This document shows positions 52,491 through 55,911 of a DNA stretch of 64,000 nucleotides, one piece after another (the stretch's first letter is position 1; each line of letters begins with the position of its first letter). Below the pieces are notes generated by a model that saw nothing but the letters and a program-made list of their open reading frames with translations, had not been told where the DNA came from and searched no databases. A program made the translations under genes and the position numbers. The DNA is from Candidatus Altiarchaeota archaeon (GTDB lineage Archaea; Altiarchaeota; Altiarchaeia; IMC4; SCGC-AAA252-I15), in contig JBDRLL010000006.1 in NCBI GenBank assembly GCA_043813075.1, positions 32,001 through 96,000 on the forward strand, read 5' to 3'.

Positions 52491-52643
52491 GGACCCGTCG
52501 GGATTCGAACCCGAGGCCTCCCGCGAACTTGAAGCCTTGTTCACTTTTTTCTTTCTTTTTTCGTGAACGTTTTTTCTTTCTTTCCTAAAGAAAGAAAAAG
52601 GTTCTTGCAAGGCGGGCGATCTACCGGTCTGATCTACAGGCCC
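52490..52643 (-). tRNA. tRNA-Ala(UGC) with an 80-nt intron at 37/38
   Basis: GGGCCTG...CCCGC CT TGC A|intron|C GCGGG...TCGGG TTCGAAT CCCGA CGGGTCC A; G3-U70 pair; located in the 16S-23S spacer. Confidence 0.95.
52526..52605 (-). other. BHB intron of tRNA-Ala containing a mirror/inverted Y-Y-R repeat
   Basis: Central helix CTTG/CAAG with bulges CA|A and TT|C. Confidence 0.9.
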
Positions 52644-52682
52644 GGAATTGGAACCCACGTTGAGTTCGATTTTTATTTTTTT

Positions 52683-52716
52683 ACGACATCCAGTTTAAGC
52701 CCTTTATTGTGAAACC
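52683..52716 (-). other. 3' arm of the 16S processing stem (pairs with 54239-54272), canonical BHB
   Basis: GACAUUCAGU GGCU AAA CUUUAUUGUGAAACC pairs with GGUUUCACAAUAAAG GGCU UAA ACUGGAUGUC. Confidence 0.85.
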
Positions 52717-52728
52717 GTTGTTGTACTT

Positions 52729-54211
52729 GGAGGTGATCCAGCCGCAGATTCCCCTACGGCTACCTTGTTACGACTTCACCCCCCTCGCGAACCAAAGATT
52801 CAACACTCCCGGATGAGAATGCTTCACCTTCAGTCCACTCAGTTGGTGTGACGGGCGGTGTGTGCAAGGAGCAGGGACATATTCACCGCTGTATGGTAAA
52901 CAGCGATTACTAGGGATTTCAGCTTCACGAGGGTGAGTTGCAACCCTCGATCTGAACTAAGACATAGTTTGGGGATTAGCTCTACCTTTCGGTGTCGCAA
53001 CCCATTGTCTATGCCATTGTATGCCGCGTGTAGCCCAGGAGATTCGGAGCATACAGACCTACCGTCGCCCGCGCCTTCCTCTGACTCATCGCCAGCGGTC
53101 CCCTTATAGTGCACCCCAAGTCTCCTTGGGATTAGCAAATAAGGGCACGGGTCTCGCTCGTTAACGGACTTAACCGTACGCCTCACGGTACGAGCTGACG
53201 ACGGCCATGCACTACCTCTCGGCTCGTCCGGTAAGACCTTCAGCCTGACCTTCATACTGCCGTCGCACCTGGTGAGTTTCCCGGCGTTGTATCCAATTGA
53301 ACCGCAGCATCCACCCCTTGTGGTGCTCCCCCGCCAATTCCTTTAAGTTTCAGCCTTGCGACCGTACTCCCCAGGCGGCTGGCTTAACAGTTTCCCTACA
53401 GCACTTCCTGAACACGAGGTTCAGGAAACACTCAGCCAGCATTGTTTACGGCTAGGACTACCCGGGTATCTAATCCGGTTTGCTCCCCTAGCTTTCGTCC
53501 CTCATCGTCAGGCCCGTTCCAGATGGGCGCCTTCGCTACTGGTGGTCCTCCAGGGATTATAGCATTTCACCGCTACCCCCAGAATACCCCCATCCTCTCC
53601 CGGCCTCTAGCCATGTAGTATCTCCTGCAATCCCTATAGTTGAGCCATAGGATTTCACAGGAGACTTGCATAACCGACTACGAACGCTTTAAGCCCAGTA
53701 AGCGCGGTTACCACTTGATCTGCTGGTGTTACCGCGGAGGCTGGCACCAGTCTTACCCAGACCTTATTCCCGAAGCTGTTTACACTTCGTAAAAGTACTA
53801 GTTGTACTAGCACACTTGGGGTTCCCTCGTCACGCTTTCGCGCATTGCGAAGGTTTCGCGACTGCTGCGCTCCTTAGAGCCTGGACCTTTGTCTCAGTGT
53901 CCATCTCCCGGCTCCCCCTCTCAGGGCCGGTACGGATCAAAGGCATGGTGGGCAGTTACCCCGCCATCAACCTAATCCGCCGCAGACTCATCTTAGGGCG
54001 CGCCGACGGAATAGTCTTTGCGTTTAGACAGCGGTCATTGCAGAGCACGCTGCCTATGGAGTATTGTCCTCAGTTTCCCGAGGTTATCCTCCTCCCTAAG
54101 TTAGATTGTCCACGTGTTACTGAGCTGTTCGCCAGGACCTTACCGTGTCCTAGACATGCATGTCTTAATCGAACCCCAATAGCAGTAACCTCGAGCAGGA
54201 TCAACTCGAGT
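52729..54211 (-). rRNA. rrs: 16S rRNA
   Basis: 5' ACTCGAGTTGATCCTG, AAACTTAAAGGAATTGGCGG, AAGTCGTAACAAGGTAGCC, 3' GGATCACCTCC. Confidence 0.98.
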
Positions 54212-54617
54212 TGGGTGGTCACAAAGTGGAATTGGTGTGGTTTCACAATAAAGTTTAGCCACTGAATGTCGTCTTAGTCAGGCGGCATCCGTGCGGTTGT
54301 CGCCCCCATTTGATGGCCTACACTACTCTTGATTTGACTAGCGGTAGCGTGTTATCGGGCTAACGCGTCTTTGCCAAAGCATTCGTTGTGAGGCGTTTCC
54401 AGATCCGATACTTTCCCCTTGAAATGGGGGTTATCTCACATCCTGGAAAAATAATCGTGCGCAATAGAATTCGCGCGGACAATATATAGGTAAAGATTAT
54501 TTAAAAGCACGCTGATTCCCGGAGGGAACCGGTATATTGTAGGGGTATTACAGGATAAAAAACAAAAAAAAACAATAACTTATATTATATAAGTATATCT
54601 TATATTATATTGGAATT

Positions 54618-55547
54618 CTATTTTTTGTAAAAGCGGGTAAAATCAGGGAAATCCGGCGGGTGAGGCCCTATGAACAGCATTTCCACCCTAAAATCATCAA
54701 GACTAAAGTTGGTGCTAGGCTCCTTGACCATGTGTAAGGGCACTTTCCCGTAGAAGGAGGCCCACGCCGAATACGTGCTTGGGGGGCCGATGATGTAGTC
54801 ACACTTGGCGAGGGAGTAAAGGTCTTCAATAGCGTGTCCACGCGCGAGAGTGACGTTGAATTCCGAAAGCTGCCCCAAATCCAAATCCTCGTCAGAACAT
54901 ATTAGGAACCCTACTTCACTGCCCTTAAACAGTTCCCGTGTTTTTTTCATCAGCAACTTATAGGTATCCAGTCCATAGAAGAATTTTCCGTTAAGGAATG
55001 ACTGGTAGTCTTTCTGCCTGATGTGCACTCCAACCAGTATTTCGCAGGATTTCCGTGCCCTGCTAATTAGGTCAGATACGTTGGACTGGTGTTCTTCTAT
55101 TGGCGTGAAATACGCCCGCACAGCGTCACCGTGTTTTTCGATTAGCTTATCCGAGTTGACCACAAAAGCGTATCCGCGGAAAAAAACAATCTTGGCTTCT
55201 CTTGTGGAGTCCAGAAATTCCGGGCTATCGAGAAGCACATAATCCCCGTATTGTATCTCATATGCCTTGAAGTATTTTAGTTTAAATCTTCCACGACCAA
55301 AACGATTTAGGATAATTCCTAGGAGGAACGACAGGATATTTGTTATAATGCGGTTGGAGTATAAGATGGATTTTTTAGGCGGGTAGGTGGACACTATACC
55401 GCCACGAGTGCCCTGGAAGTGTTGCGCATAATCCCTGAAATCAAGATGCATTACACGCCTGTTGCCTTCTAGCGCAGACACTATAACGTGCGAGAAATTA
55501 ACTAGATGGTTGCAAAGCCCACCATACACGCCAGATATGACAAACAT
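54618..55547 (-). CDS. Alpha-1,2-fucosyltransferase-like (GT11)
   Basis: 'GGLCN', 'VGVHIRQKDY', 'EDLYSLAKCDYIIGPPSTYSAWASFYG'. Confidence 0.8.
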   Translation of the reverse strand: MFVISGVYGGLCNHLVNFSHVIVSALEGNRRVMHLDFRDYAQHFQGTRGGIVSTYPPKKSILYSNRIITNILSFLLGIILNRFGRGRFKLKYFKAYEIQYGDYVLLDSPEFLDSTREAKIVFFRGYAFVVNSDKLIEKHGDAVRAYFTPIEEHQSNVSDLISRARKSCEILVGVHIRQKDYQSFLNGKFFYGLDTYKLLMKKTRELFKGSEVGFLICSDEDLDLGQLSEFNVTLARGHAIEDLYSLAKCDYIIGPPSTYSAWASFYGKVPLHMVKEPSTNFSLDDFRVEMLFIGPHPPDFPDFTRFYKK

Positions 55548-55602
55548 GTTAAGAGATTGGTGTAATCATTAATAATCCCCCATTAGGGGGATGGGAAGAT
55601 GA

Positions 55603-55677
55603 TGGGCCGCGGGCGGAACACTCAGCCCTTTCGGGCTGGTGCGTCATCCCCTAGCGGGGATGCCGTTTGAATCCGCG
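55603..55677 (-). repeat. Duplicated 3' end of tRNA-His interrupted by a 47-nt two-hairpin insert
   Basis: tgggccgcgggcggaa (=55749-55764) + insert 55619-55665 + tttgaatccgcg (=55765-55776). Confidence 0.88.
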
Positions 55678-55694
55678 CTTTGTTATAACGCTCA

Positions 55695-55751
55695 GTGTCG
55701 TCGAGGCGGAGCCGAAGACGGCACCCGCATGTCCACTGGGCGTGACAGTGG
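55695..55751. repeat. tRNA 3'-trailer double-hairpin element, copy 2
   Basis: gtgtcgtc-ga-ggc-gga-gcc-gaa-gacggcac-ccgcatgt-ccactg-ggcgtga-cagtgg. Confidence 0.85.
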
Positions 55752-55911
55752 GCCGCGGGCGGAATTTGAATCCGCGTCGCCGGATTGCTGCAACCTTTGA
55801 TTTTCCGGAAGATTAATGTGTTCTTTCTTTTCCGTCAACGCTTTTCTTTCTTATAAGAAAGAAAAGGGTTGCCACAGTCCAGTAGGATAACCAGGCTACC
55901 CCACCGCGGCC
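55751..55911 (-). tRNA. tRNA-His(GUG) with encoded G-1 and an 86-nt intron at 37/38
   Basis: G GCCGCGG...CTGGA CT GTG G|intron|A TCCGG...GCGGA TTCAAAT TCCGC CCGCGGC C. Confidence 0.95.
55786..55871 (-). other. BHB intron of tRNA-His containing a mirror/inverted Y-Y-R repeat
   Basis: Central helix CTGT/GCAG, bulges GG|C and CA|A, outer helix AACC/GGTT. Confidence 0.9.

Follow-up and report, generated by a model that had tools for sequence, protein, structure and literature searches.

Evidence that triple helices are of importance in cells is scarce, and comes mostly from work in vitro and from a few RNA structures. Among dispersed repeats, the REP/RAYT elements and the PATE elements of the IS200/IS605 family are short imperfect hairpins with a conserved flanking tetranucleotide. 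In the Thermoproteales, Fujishima and colleagues reportedly described in 2010 homologous introns common to different tRNA genes ('intron transposition'), for which no three-tract symmetry is said to have been reported. According to the available part of Brown 2020 (PMC7583470), the known natural RNA triple helices, i.e., those of the MALAT1/ENE type and of pseudoknot riboswitches, are of the pyrimidine motif, with U.A-U and C+.G-C triples. As described in the available part of Holder 2015 (PMC4666352), the TMECO repeats of Proteobacteria are G/C-rich, with 9-nt stems, a second loop of 3 nt and the consensus CCCTCNCCC-N3-6-GGGNGAGGG-N3-GGGNGAGGG; the bacterial repeats of Hoyne and Maher 2000, as cited there, show no bias in orientation or gene function.

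Here we analyze the introns of a tRNA-Ala and a tRNA-His gene in a stretch of archaeal DNA of 64,000 nucleotides, referred to as the window. We conclude that both introns are members of a large and apparently undescribed archaeal family. A literature search found no archaeal or tRNA-linked description of such a repeat; likewise, a preliminary description of this DNA had stated that no triplex tRNA-intron family was known to it.

Two tRNA introns with a three-tract repeat

The features of the two genes are as follows.

52643..52490, minus strand: tRNA-Ala(TGC) gene in the 16S-23S rRNA spacer (ARAGORN -i; Rfam tRNA, 49.5 bits)
52605..52526, minus strand: Ala intron, 80 nt, at the canonical 37/38 position (ARAGORN -i)
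52600..52604, minus strand: Ala 5' flank, bases f1-f5, GAACC (from flank-linker f1:l5 co-variation)
52587..52599, minus strand: Ala tract 1, pyrimidine, TTTTTCTTTCTTT (inverted repeat, 13 nt, 100% complementary)
52570..52583, minus strand: Ala tract 2, purine, AAAGAAAGAAAAAA (Watson-Crick complement to tract 1)
52562..52569, minus strand: Ala linker, CGTTCACG (sequence reading and predicted fold)
52548..52561, minus strand: Ala tract 3, purine, AAAAAAGAAAGAAA (mirrors tract 2 exactly in a mirror scan)
55911..55750, minus strand: tRNA-His(GTG) gene including G-1 (sequence reading and predicted fold; miscalled as Asp by ARAGORN)
55871..55786, minus strand: His intron, 86 nt, at the canonical 37/38 position (bulge-helix-bulge read by eye)
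55867..55871, minus strand: His 5' flank, CAACC (sequence reading)
55855..55866, minus strand: His tract 1, CTTTTCTTTCTT (sequence reading)
55841..55852, minus strand: His tract 2, AAGAAAGAAAAG (sequence reading)
55833..55840, minus strand: His linker, CGTTGACG, with base 5 (G) complementary to the flank base C
55821..55832, minus strand: His tract 3, GAAAAGAAAGAA (exact mirror, not direct repeat, of tract 2)

On the RNA-sense (minus) strand, the Ala copy thus reads GAACC / TTTTTCTTTCTTT / AGG / AAAGAAAGAAAAAA / CGTTCACG / AAAAAAGAAAGAAA, and the His copy reads CAACC / CTTTTCTTTCTT / AT / AAGAAAGAAAAG / CGTTGACG / GAAAAGAAAGAA. Both introns have the archaeal bulge-helix-bulge arrangement, namely helix, 3-nt bulge, 4-bp helix, 3-nt bulge and helix. 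By eye, the borders of the Ala intron consist of the anticodon stem CCCGC:GCGGG, the bulges CAA and TTC, the central helix CTTG:CAAG and the outer helix GAACC:GG(C)TTC, and the fold predicted for this gene by RNAfold contains the anticodon stem and a bulge-helix-bulge-like structure. In the His intron the stem CTGGA:TCCGG, the bulges GGC and CAA, the central helix CTGT:GCAG and the outer helix AACC:GGTT were read by eye, together with the predicted fold.

The Ala flank GAACC has two possible partners, either the linker GTTC, giving a helix designated P0, or the 3' end of the intron, GG(C)TTC. The linker in turn has an alternative partner, GTGAAC at 52539-52544, which would place tract 3 inside a hairpin loop of 18 nt. 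In the His copy, P0, one mismatch and the stem of tracts 1 and 2 (P1) form an extended hairpin with 18-nt arms that are 94% complementary. The core of the Ala copy, AAAGAAAGAAA, is self-mirror, and mirror and direct repeat are not separable there; the His copy separates the two symmetries, with a mirror match of 12 nt versus a direct match of 9 nt.

The pattern RRRRRCGTTNRCGRRRRR has two matches in the window, versus a mean of 0.01 in dinucleotide shuffles (n=100), none of which contained two. A scan of the 1.8-Mb genome for exact mirror repeats with arms of at least 11 nt and an 8-nt spacer returned seven copies of the family, several of them at the top of the list. Pyrimidine/purine hairpins with arms of at least 8 nt number 33 genome-wide, 9 of which carry an exact mirror third tract; each of five Markov-1 randomised genomes contained 0-3 such hairpins, and a third tract accompanied none. 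At the gathering threshold, Rfam finds only rRNA and tRNA in the window and no family for the element, and an E-value search of 55500-56000 gave chance-level microRNA matches only (E >= 0.33). The coordinates and letters of the preliminary description are all correct, the symmetry that it described is far beyond chance in shuffles and Markov-1 genomes alike, the two introns are indeed homologous, as members of one family, and the mirror and inverted symmetry is retained where they differ, as it had claimed.

Anatomy of the element and co-variation of its tracts

A tract-anchored scan yielded 212 copies. Read on the strand that is co-transcribed with the adjoining stable-RNA gene, the element is about 45-70 nt long and consists of a flank N-A-A-C-C, pyrimidine tract 1, a loop of 2-8 nt, purine tract 2, a linker C-G-T-T-N'-R-C-G and purine tract 3. 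Tract 2 reverse-complements tract 1 and is mirrored by tract 3. P1 is a near-perfect helix of 8-15 bp, and 193 of 206 hairpins are perfect, with no excess of wobble pairs (three T.G versus three C.A). The linker, or loop 2, measures 8 nt in 167/212 copies. It is not a passive loop; its 5' half pairs with the flank, giving the 4-bp helix P0, separated from P1 by a conserved C/C mismatch. In 165 of 167 copies, flank base f1 and linker base l5 are Watson-Crick partners, and all four pair types are used. The tracts are about 80% A/T; guanines make up about 20% of tract 2 and are isolated, with an internal GG in none of the 212 copies. The bases that follow tract 3 are, in some copies, complementary to the loop of P1: GG directly follows tract 3 in 9 of 18 copies with a CC-containing loop, versus 10 of 177 others (Fisher p = 3e-6).

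The preliminary description had proposed three-way co-variation as a check, and this co-variation is strong. Among loci picked with a purine-flanked linker pattern, 91 of 104 copies have a tract 3 that mirrors tract 2 exactly and in full, and there are 45 distinct tract-2 sequences. The mirror run averages 10.6, versus 3.14 +/- 0.36 (maximum 4.5) in 2000 partner shuffles, a comparison inflated by kinship, as the copies are related by descent. The length of the mirror follows that of the stem (r = 0.77). In the 95 copies that are not self-mirror, tract 3 matches as mirror only in 75, as direct repeat only in 0, as both in 9 and as neither in 11. Tract 3 co-varies with tract 2 base for base, A with A and G with G, along all of P1, and the mirror tract is kept despite unrelated linkers or linker insertions of 50-60 nt. 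Natural variation thus provides a test, with dozens of tract variants that change together in three places in deep archaeal lineages. Such triple simultaneous change would be hard to explain otherwise than by a selected three-stranded structure, and we consider it very probable that a three-stranded fold is under selection.

In this fold, tract 3 would lie back along P1 as the third strand of a class II intrastrand triple helix, with A.A-U/T and G.G-C triples on the sense strand, or with the counterpart T.A-T and C+.G-C triples on the complement. The composition of tract 2 suits the pyrimidine motif of the complementary strand better than the purine motif. A Watson-Crick switch with two states, tract 1 being paired with tract 2 in one and with tract 3 in the other, is suggested by the Ala copy, where tract 3 is embedded in A6-G-A3-G-A6 and can pair with tract 1 over 16 nt (94% complementary); the Asn copy appears alike by eye. 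Such a switch needs a tract 3 that is a direct repeat. As a general reading it is contradicted by the complete lack of direct-only copies among the 95, and it is viable only for the few that are self-mirror; we regard it as extremely improbable.

Sites of the element and possible function

A strict pattern has matches in 37 of 61 related genomes, and its backward control in none. Of the named genomes labelled DPANN or methanogen-related, four have 3-11 copies and a fifth has one, with controls at 0; named records hold at least 110 matching stretches, labelled ANME-1/Methanophagales, other methanogen-related lineages or DPANN. Copies are found in tRNA introns, directly 3' of tRNA and 5S rRNA genes, between tRNAs, at other intergenic places and before some protein genes. 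In a sample of 181 copies placed with ARAGORN, those in sense orientation comprise 36 in tRNA 3' trailers, 30 inside tRNA genes and 6 in leaders, and 10 are antisense; the remaining 99 have no ARAGORN placement, and by eye an uncounted number of them are introns at non-canonical positions or missed trailers. Three copies lie downstream of 5S rRNA genes, and one conserved copy is upstream of the S-adenosylhomocysteine hydrolase gene. Some intron copies in relatives are at D-loop and T-loop positions, and some DPANN copies, in antisense orientation, directly adjoin tRNA genes at their 5' ends. The search outside tRNAs that the preliminary description had suggested shows that this is not an intron family and that the reading given there is too narrow, with copies in trailers, after 5S genes and before protein genes.

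In trailers, tract 1 begins 3-8 nt past the discriminator base, N73. This base often serves as f1 itself, and its pair with l5 is present in 14 of 15 such copies; for C72 in that role the figure is 8 of 8. This onset would suit a T-rich archaeal terminator turned hairpin, with tract 3 as an A-rich spacer and the mirror as an accident of (AAAG)n slippage. Many other trailers in genome G000 start with AAC(C) followed by a T-rich hairpin that has no exact third tract, an exact mirror tract being present in 9 of the 33 hairpins. The A-rich tracts are T-runs on the opposite strand, and the terminator might be bidirectional. Archaeal termination, however, usually takes about five or more T, and many copies have T4 runs at most. 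In the 89%-complete genome, ARAGORN found no His or Asn tRNA genes other than those with the element in their introns, and the polymerase must therefore read through it. The partner-specific matching, the absence of direct-only copies and the dependence of tract-3 length on stem length likewise argue against a terminator, which we regard as quite improbable.

Our preferred reading, to which we assign a probability of roughly 0.45 as a whole, is that of a widespread archaeal cis-element whose tract 3 would be folded back as a third strand, with a processing role at the RNA level. The element would most likely act in the primary transcript, as judged from sequence. It would always lie in parts that are discarded, i.e., bulge-helix-bulge introns, 3' trailers and spacers, and the foot of its hairpin would be at the cleavage site and may include N73. 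Given this placement, it would gate or mark processing, the candidate enzymes being the splicing endonuclease EndA and RNase Z, or alternatively may cap the cut-off RNA against exonucleases. Elements would be gained and lost at tRNA genes, possibly by local duplication or recombination. In its favour are also the predominance of sense copies at tRNA genes, the pairing of N73 and C72 with l5 and the read-through of the His and Asn introns. Counted against the RNA-level reading are the lack of wobble excess in P1, the isolated guanines and the DPANN antisense copies at tRNA 5' ends.

The absence of a wobble excess and the isolated guanines would suit a DNA-level repeat like BoxC/PIT/TMECO, which would fold in single-stranded DNA (during replication or transcription, or in a mobile intermediate), be most stable as a T.A-T / C+.G-C pyrimidine motif on the template strand, and be selfish or recombinogenic, surviving where RNA is discarded. 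The block order is that of class II TMECO, which form DNA intrastrand triplexes in vitro and mark unstable loci (available part of Holder 2015, PMC4666352). Local duplications adjoin copies. In three genera, the beginning of the S-adenosylhomocysteine hydrolase gene occurs in duplicate around the element; downstream of tRNA-Phe, a copy is preceded by a duplicate of a tRNA 3' half; and a similar half is found about 70 nt past tRNA-His, which has its copy in the intron. Within one genus, the spacer tRNA-Ala has the intron in G012 and none in G002, and tandem copies occur (L016, L030, L059). We regard this reading as possible but less likely than not. Against it, the element is strongly biased in orientation relative to stable-RNA genes, and the foot of its hairpin coincides in register with the sites of RNA cleavage. 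The Y1 (HUH) transposase PF01797 had no match in G000 (89% complete), in a search whose control was positive in 6 of 14 known genomes; 2.9 million viral contigs gave a single match, without a hairpin; and a mutational mechanism that creates mirror repeats is not known.

The orientation bias would also agree with a hybrid structure that requires sense transcription, in which the nascent U-rich tract 1 RNA is a parallel Hoogsteen third strand on the tract 3 DNA duplex (RNA.DNA-DNA triplex), in competition with the RNA hairpin of tracts 1 and 2. The combined mirror and inverted symmetry makes tracts 1 and 3 complementary in parallel orientation, and the isolated guanines match isolated C+.G-C triples. 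The RNA hairpin would, however, be expected to form first, and the pairing of the loop with downstream bases and of the flank with the linker indicates a fold of a single strand; we therefore view this hybrid as quite improbable.

As to the form that our preferred RNA-level reading may take, no all-RNA purine-motif triple helix is known from nature, and such helices are regarded as disfavoured. It is conceivable, if rather unlikely, that the sense RNA forms one, with up to about 14 A.A-U and G.G-C triples, kept from ANME-1-type archaea to DPANN, that would switch the access of EndA and RNase Z to cleavage-site nucleotides at tRNA and 5S precursor ends and in tRNA introns. Triple helices of the purine motif that include RNA strands are described as non-forming or contested in the available parts of Holder 2015 (PMC4666352) and Brown 2020 (PMC7583470), which also counts against the RNA-level reading as a whole. 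A fold in RNA would represent a new class of RNA tertiary motif and a new layer in archaeal tRNA/5S maturation and intron biology; a fold in DNA would make the element an archaeal equivalent of the BoxC/PIT repeats, unusually clear in its tie to stable-RNA genes and local duplications. Either way, the element is a short, defined and testable sequence, and a marker for the gain and loss of tRNA introns.

Comparison with known systems

The likeness to bacterial PIT elements that the preliminary description had pointed out is borne out by the available part of Holder 2015 (PMC4666352). Like BoxC/PIT/TMECO, its nearest known relatives, the archaeal element is of class II, with pyrimidine-purine-purine blocks on one strand, the second block being complementary to the first and mirrored by the third; in both, many copies are scattered between genes and stems are more conserved than loops. 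In block order and in its complement and mirror symmetry it falls within the class II PIT/ITxF definition given there. It is not a TMECO/BoxC member as these are defined in that part of the source: the consensus is absent, and the tracts are A/T-rich (about 80%), with about 20% G in tract 2. Unlike TMECO, as described there, it also has stems of variable length (5-15 nt), a conserved flank and 8-nt linker paired across a C/C mismatch, and a tie to tRNA/5S genes and tRNA introns, in sense orientation. Its 8-nt loop 2 is outside the 1-6 nt allowed for ITxF and inside the 0-10 nt of Hoyne (both as given in that part of PMC4666352), and an ITxF search would therefore have missed it.

The MALAT1/ENE-type helices of Brown 2020 (PMC7583470, available part) likewise have a third strand along a helix, and some archaeal copies have a pseudoknot-like lock. 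The sense RNA, with one U-rich and two A-rich tracts, does not have the ENE/MALAT1-type motif described there; the antisense strand alone fits. REP and PATE elements are similarly dispersed hairpins with an orientation bias at gene ends, but REP elements have no mirror third tract, and the lack of PF01797 matches in G000 (89% complete) speaks against a REP/RAYT-like or IS200/IS605-mobilised element.

In H-DNA mirror repeats such as GAA.TTC, as in tracts 2 and 3 here, a purine mirror repeat is present; in our case, the non-template strand is the one that carries the purines. For H-DNA, a mirror repeat in duplex DNA is sufficient, whereas the archaeal element has in addition an inverted tract that is on the same strand and co-varies, pointing to a fold of one strand upon itself. 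Finally, as in the introns of Thermoproteales, related intron sequences are shared among distinct tRNA genes and intron positions. The archaeal element is found in other lineages, its named carriers being labelled ANME-1 and DPANN, and, unlike those introns, the archaeal module is also present outside introns.

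The rRNA operon and further copies in the same genome

The two tRNA genes whose introns carry the element lie within and upstream of an archaeal rRNA operon.

rRNA operon region of the window
54211..52728, minus strand: 16S rRNA (Rfam), part of the operon
52279..49407, minus strand: 23S rRNA (Rfam), part of the operon
52643..52490, minus strand: tRNA-Ala(TGC), in the 16S-23S spacer
55911..55750, minus strand: tRNA-His(GTG), upstream of the operon

Both genes have an intron at the canonical 37/38 position. By our own reading, a standard bulge-helix-bulge can be drawn for each, and its helices are reproduced by RNAfold. 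When the tracts were re-read from the sequence, their coordinates and letters in the preliminary description proved exact. Each element consists of a 5' flank (f1-f5, N-A-A-C-C), pyrimidine tract 1, a loop, purine tract 2, an 8-nt linker (l1-l8, C-G-T-T-N'-R-C-G) and purine tract 3. The purine-flanked linker pattern has two occurrences in the window, versus 0.01 expected. In both introns f1 is 0-1 nt from the 5' splice site, and in intron copies the flank also has to pair with the intron 3' end, thereby closing the bulge-helix-bulge (RNAfold). An AT-rich repeat at 54580-54611, some 370-400 nt upstream of 16S, contains CTTATATTATAT twice and was also scored as an 11-nt mirror repeat in a mirror scan; it may represent tandem TATA-box promoters of the operon.

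The window's own genome, G000 (1.80 Mb, 41 contigs, 89% complete), has numerous long tRNA introns according to ARAGORN with introns allowed. Two calls, with introns of 1385 nt (C25:12045-13522) and 887 nt (C32:6483-7461), are probably false, since the 887-nt 'intron' reads as antisense coding sequence. Among tRNA introns, those of Ala, His, Asn and Cys contain the element, and that of Leu(TAG) contains a variant. The preliminary description had taken the element to be one of introns, which is too narrow. In G000 it also lies directly 3' of tRNA-Phe, tRNA-Cys (two genes), tRNA-Leu(TAG) and tRNA-Ile, between tRNA-Ser(GCT) and the tRNA that follows it, and ahead of an S-adenosylhomocysteine hydrolase gene. 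Three copies of the family are located directly 3' of 5S rRNA genes. A scan of G000 for pyrimidine/purine hairpins returned 33, nine of them with an exact mirror third tract, while randomised genomes gave 0-3 hairpins and no third tract in the same scan.

Several other repeated structures were observed at these loci.

Structures associated with element copies
Window about 52410-52489 and 55700-55749, minus strand: second recurrent module, within the tRNA-Ala and tRNA-His 3' trailers
Window 55603-55678, minus strand, and locus L003 (G000 contig C3, about 125040-125110, minus strand): interrupted tRNA 3'-end copy
Loci L005 (G000 contig C37:24300-24800), L054/L218 and L067: element before the S-adenosylhomocysteine hydrolase gene

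The second module consists of GNCATCTTCG, a small hairpin and CTCGATGNC, often followed by TGTGGCGTGG. It is also present in at least five other G000 tRNA introns (several of their ARAGORN anticodon labels are unreliable), and in relatives it comes after many three-tract copies. A K-turn or C/D-box identity for this module (GCCATCTTCG...CGATGGC) was dropped, there being no fit by eye. The interrupted tRNA copy runs from the T-stem through TTCAAA into an insert of about 47-55 nt, after which come the remaining T-arm, the 3' strand of the acceptor stem and the discriminator base. It resembles what is left of an intron copy at the T-loop (59/60) position, or of a small integration or duplication. 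The element lies just before the ATG of the S-adenosylhomocysteine hydrolase gene (Pfam AdoHcyase, E = 1.5e-68) in three genera. In all three, part of the gene's 5' coding sequence is found a second time, upstream of the element; the duplicate spans 8 codons in G000 and, in two relatives, about 24-25. In G000 the duplicated fragment is preceded, by eye, by a TATA-like box and ribosome-binding site look-alikes. Lastly, two trailer copies, one at C32:8276-8390 (plus strand) and one after tRNA-Ile on C10, have tract 2 interrupted by the same nested insertion, a pair of small GC hairpins about 48 nt long in all, which suggests that modules insert into modules.

Three-way co-variation and the flank:linker helix

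To assess co-variation, loci were collected for each match in 18 related genomes and G000, giving 148 distinct contexts. We kept the 104 whose Watson-Crick hairpin is 5 bp or longer and stops no more than 1 nt from the linker; the other 44 are either degenerate copies or chance matches within coding sequence. Of the 104 copies, 91 have a tract 3 that mirrors tract 2 exactly over its full length. The set comprises 45 different tract-2 sequences, 41 of them not self-mirror. The mean mirror run is 10.6, versus 3.14 +/- 0.36 (maximum 4.5) in 2000 shuffles of the partners, although these shuffle figures overstate independence, because the copies are kin and were chosen by a purine-flanked linker pattern. 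Stem length equals mirror length in most copies (r = 0.77). The three-way co-variation proposed as a check in the preliminary description is strong; despite the kinship of the copies, each tract variant demands matching changes at three places. A Watson-Crick switch between tracts 2 and 3 is rejected, since among 95 copies in which tract 2 differs from its own mirror, 75 have the mirror only and none the direct repeat only (9 have both and 11 neither). In tRNA-Leu trailers alone, at least seven tract types were counted by eye across genomes, nearly all exact mirrors and one off by a single base.

A further scan used the three tracts as its sole anchor and left the linker free. It recovered 212 copies, 153 with the main linker and 59 with others (such as CCTCGG, CCTTGG, CGCGCCCG, TGTTGATG and TGTTTCA(T/C)CCCC), two of the 212 having linker insertions of 50-60 nt. 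The mirror tract is kept in all of them, other linkers and insertions included, and in the spacer loci as well; it is independent of linker sequence. We consider it very probable, at roughly 0.85, that a three-stranded fold is under selection.

The 8-nt linker of the preliminary description is not a passive one. Across 167 copies with a linker of this length, f1 and l5 form a Watson-Crick pair in 165 (C-G 81, G-C 36, A-T 35, T-A 13), and f3 and l3 are A-T in 149, G-C in 10, G.T in 5 and A.C in 3, and the C/C mismatch of f5 and l1 persists in 160. The same kind of pairing joins the remaining linker classes to their respective flanks, for example CCTTGG to CAAGC and CCTCGG to GAGC. With this flank:linker helix (P0), the element becomes a long hairpin, comprising P0, the C/C mismatch and the helix of tracts 1 and 2 (P1), followed by three bases and tract 3. 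In the His copy, a repeat search gave the hairpin 18-nt arms that are 94% complementary. An extension of the triplex register into P0 was rejected, as it would be sterically unfavorable. Pairing of l1-l3 with l6-l8, which would make a mini-hairpin of the linker itself, is tentative; it fits 163 of the 167 copies at l3:l6, but appears to reflect few independent changes, maybe one or two events in one subfamily. Beyond tract 3, GG follows directly in 9 of 18 copies with CC in the P1 loop, versus 10 of 177 otherwise (Fisher p = 3e-6), and GTTACAC loops are matched by TGTAA or TGTG after tract 3 in all three tabulated copies. Such complementarity puts tract 3's 3' end next to the P1 loop, the position that fold-back requires.

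Position at processing sites and the nature of the folding strand

Positions relative to tRNA genes were sorted with ARAGORN for 181 copies.

Element copies by position (ARAGORN, n = 181)
3' trailer: 36 sense, 2 antisense
Inside a tRNA gene: 30 sense, 3 antisense
5' leader: 6 sense, 5 antisense
Without ARAGORN assignment: 99 of 181, some being, by eye, non-canonical introns or trailers missed by ARAGORN (not counted)

The antisense copies belong mostly to DPANN-labelled records and adjoin the 5' end of the tRNA gene. Among 93 copies not assigned to tRNAs, orientation to reading frames is weakly biased, with a same-strand gene upstream in 41 and an opposite-strand gene downstream in 26 by crude gene calls. 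In 3' trailers, tract 1 begins 3-8 nt past the discriminator base. Where the gap is 4 nt, f1 is the discriminator base itself, which is paired to l5 in 14 of 15 copies (A-T 10, G-C 3, T-A 1); with a 3-nt gap, f1 is C72, and all 8 such copies have G at l5.

Given a three-stranded fold, it could act in RNA or in single-stranded DNA, and we place RNA slightly ahead. The orientation bias, the placement in excised segments and the register with cleavage sites all favor RNA. So does the fact that the His and Asn tRNA genes, each the sole one found by ARAGORN in G000 (89% complete), carry the element in their introns, so that polymerase read-through is needed. Against RNA, the parts of Holder 2015 (PMC4666352) and Brown 2020 (PMC7583470) consulted report purine-motif helices with RNA strands as excluded or contested; moreover, the tracts are A-rich with isolated guanines (internal GG in 0 of 212), which would suit T.A-T and C+.G-C triads on the complementary strand. 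Nor is there a wobble excess in P1, where T.G and C.A occur three times each, a count uninformative on sense versus antisense strand. Single-stranded DNA, a little behind, has a precedent in the bacterial BoxC/PIT/TMECO repeats, which that part of Holder 2015 ties to genomic instability, and is favored by the local duplications adjoining copies. If the fold does act in RNA, the element might gate access of EndA or RNase Z, or cap the RNA that is cut off.

At locus L059 (genome G011, contig C13, about 11570-11850) the element is present three times at a spacing of 130 nt. Complementary GCTGACTGC / GCAGTCAG arms enclose two of these copies, and ATGATGA and CTGA motifs are close by; these arms and motifs suggest that the element may be in bulge-helix-bulge-type introns of a non-tRNA small RNA.

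Distribution and relation to known triplex repeats

A strict 22-letter pattern has matches in 37 of 61 related genomes, and its backward control in none. The spacer tRNA-Ala intron contains the element or a variant in G000, G012, G013, G014 and G023; the corresponding spacer tRNA-Ala(TGC) gene is intronless in 13 relatives, among them G002, which shares its genus with G012. A scan of one genome per prokaryote species found at least 110 stretches with the pattern. Among the 80 matches listed, most are labelled Methanophagales/ANME-1 or archaea without a name; the other labels are Syntrophoarchaeum, Methanocellales, Methanosarcinales, Iainarchaeum/Diapherotrites, Micrarchaeota, Nano-, Woese-, Pace-, Aenigm- and Parvarchaeota, and Altiarchaeota, this last being three named carrier records assigned solely by record label. 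Six of the 80 are bacterial, all without the hairpin. Whole-genome counts for five named carriers were 11, 11, 3, 1 and 3, with controls at 0. Viral contigs gave a single match, in a stretch without the hairpin, which we take as chance. No Y1 transposase was found in G000 (89% complete), and the loci tested against Rfam gave just rRNA, tRNA, 5S and group II intron domains, with no family for the element.

The literature searched, which left most subscription journals and about 1.7 million PubMed Central articles outside, yielded no archaeal or tRNA-linked triplex element, no paper on ANME-1 tRNA introns, no match to 14-letter strings of the element and, judged by title and the start of the abstract, no relevant paper on a triple helix in archaeal tRNA introns. 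Archaea are just part of the database in the portion of Holder 2015 used here, whose supplementary tables S1, S10 and S13 and online ITxF database might list archaeal matches. In kind, the element is an intrastrand-triplex repeat, and it would constitute a new class if the fold forms in RNA. It differs from the known intrastrand-triplex repeats in its domain, its composition, its flank:linker helix and its tie to stable-RNA genes and introns.
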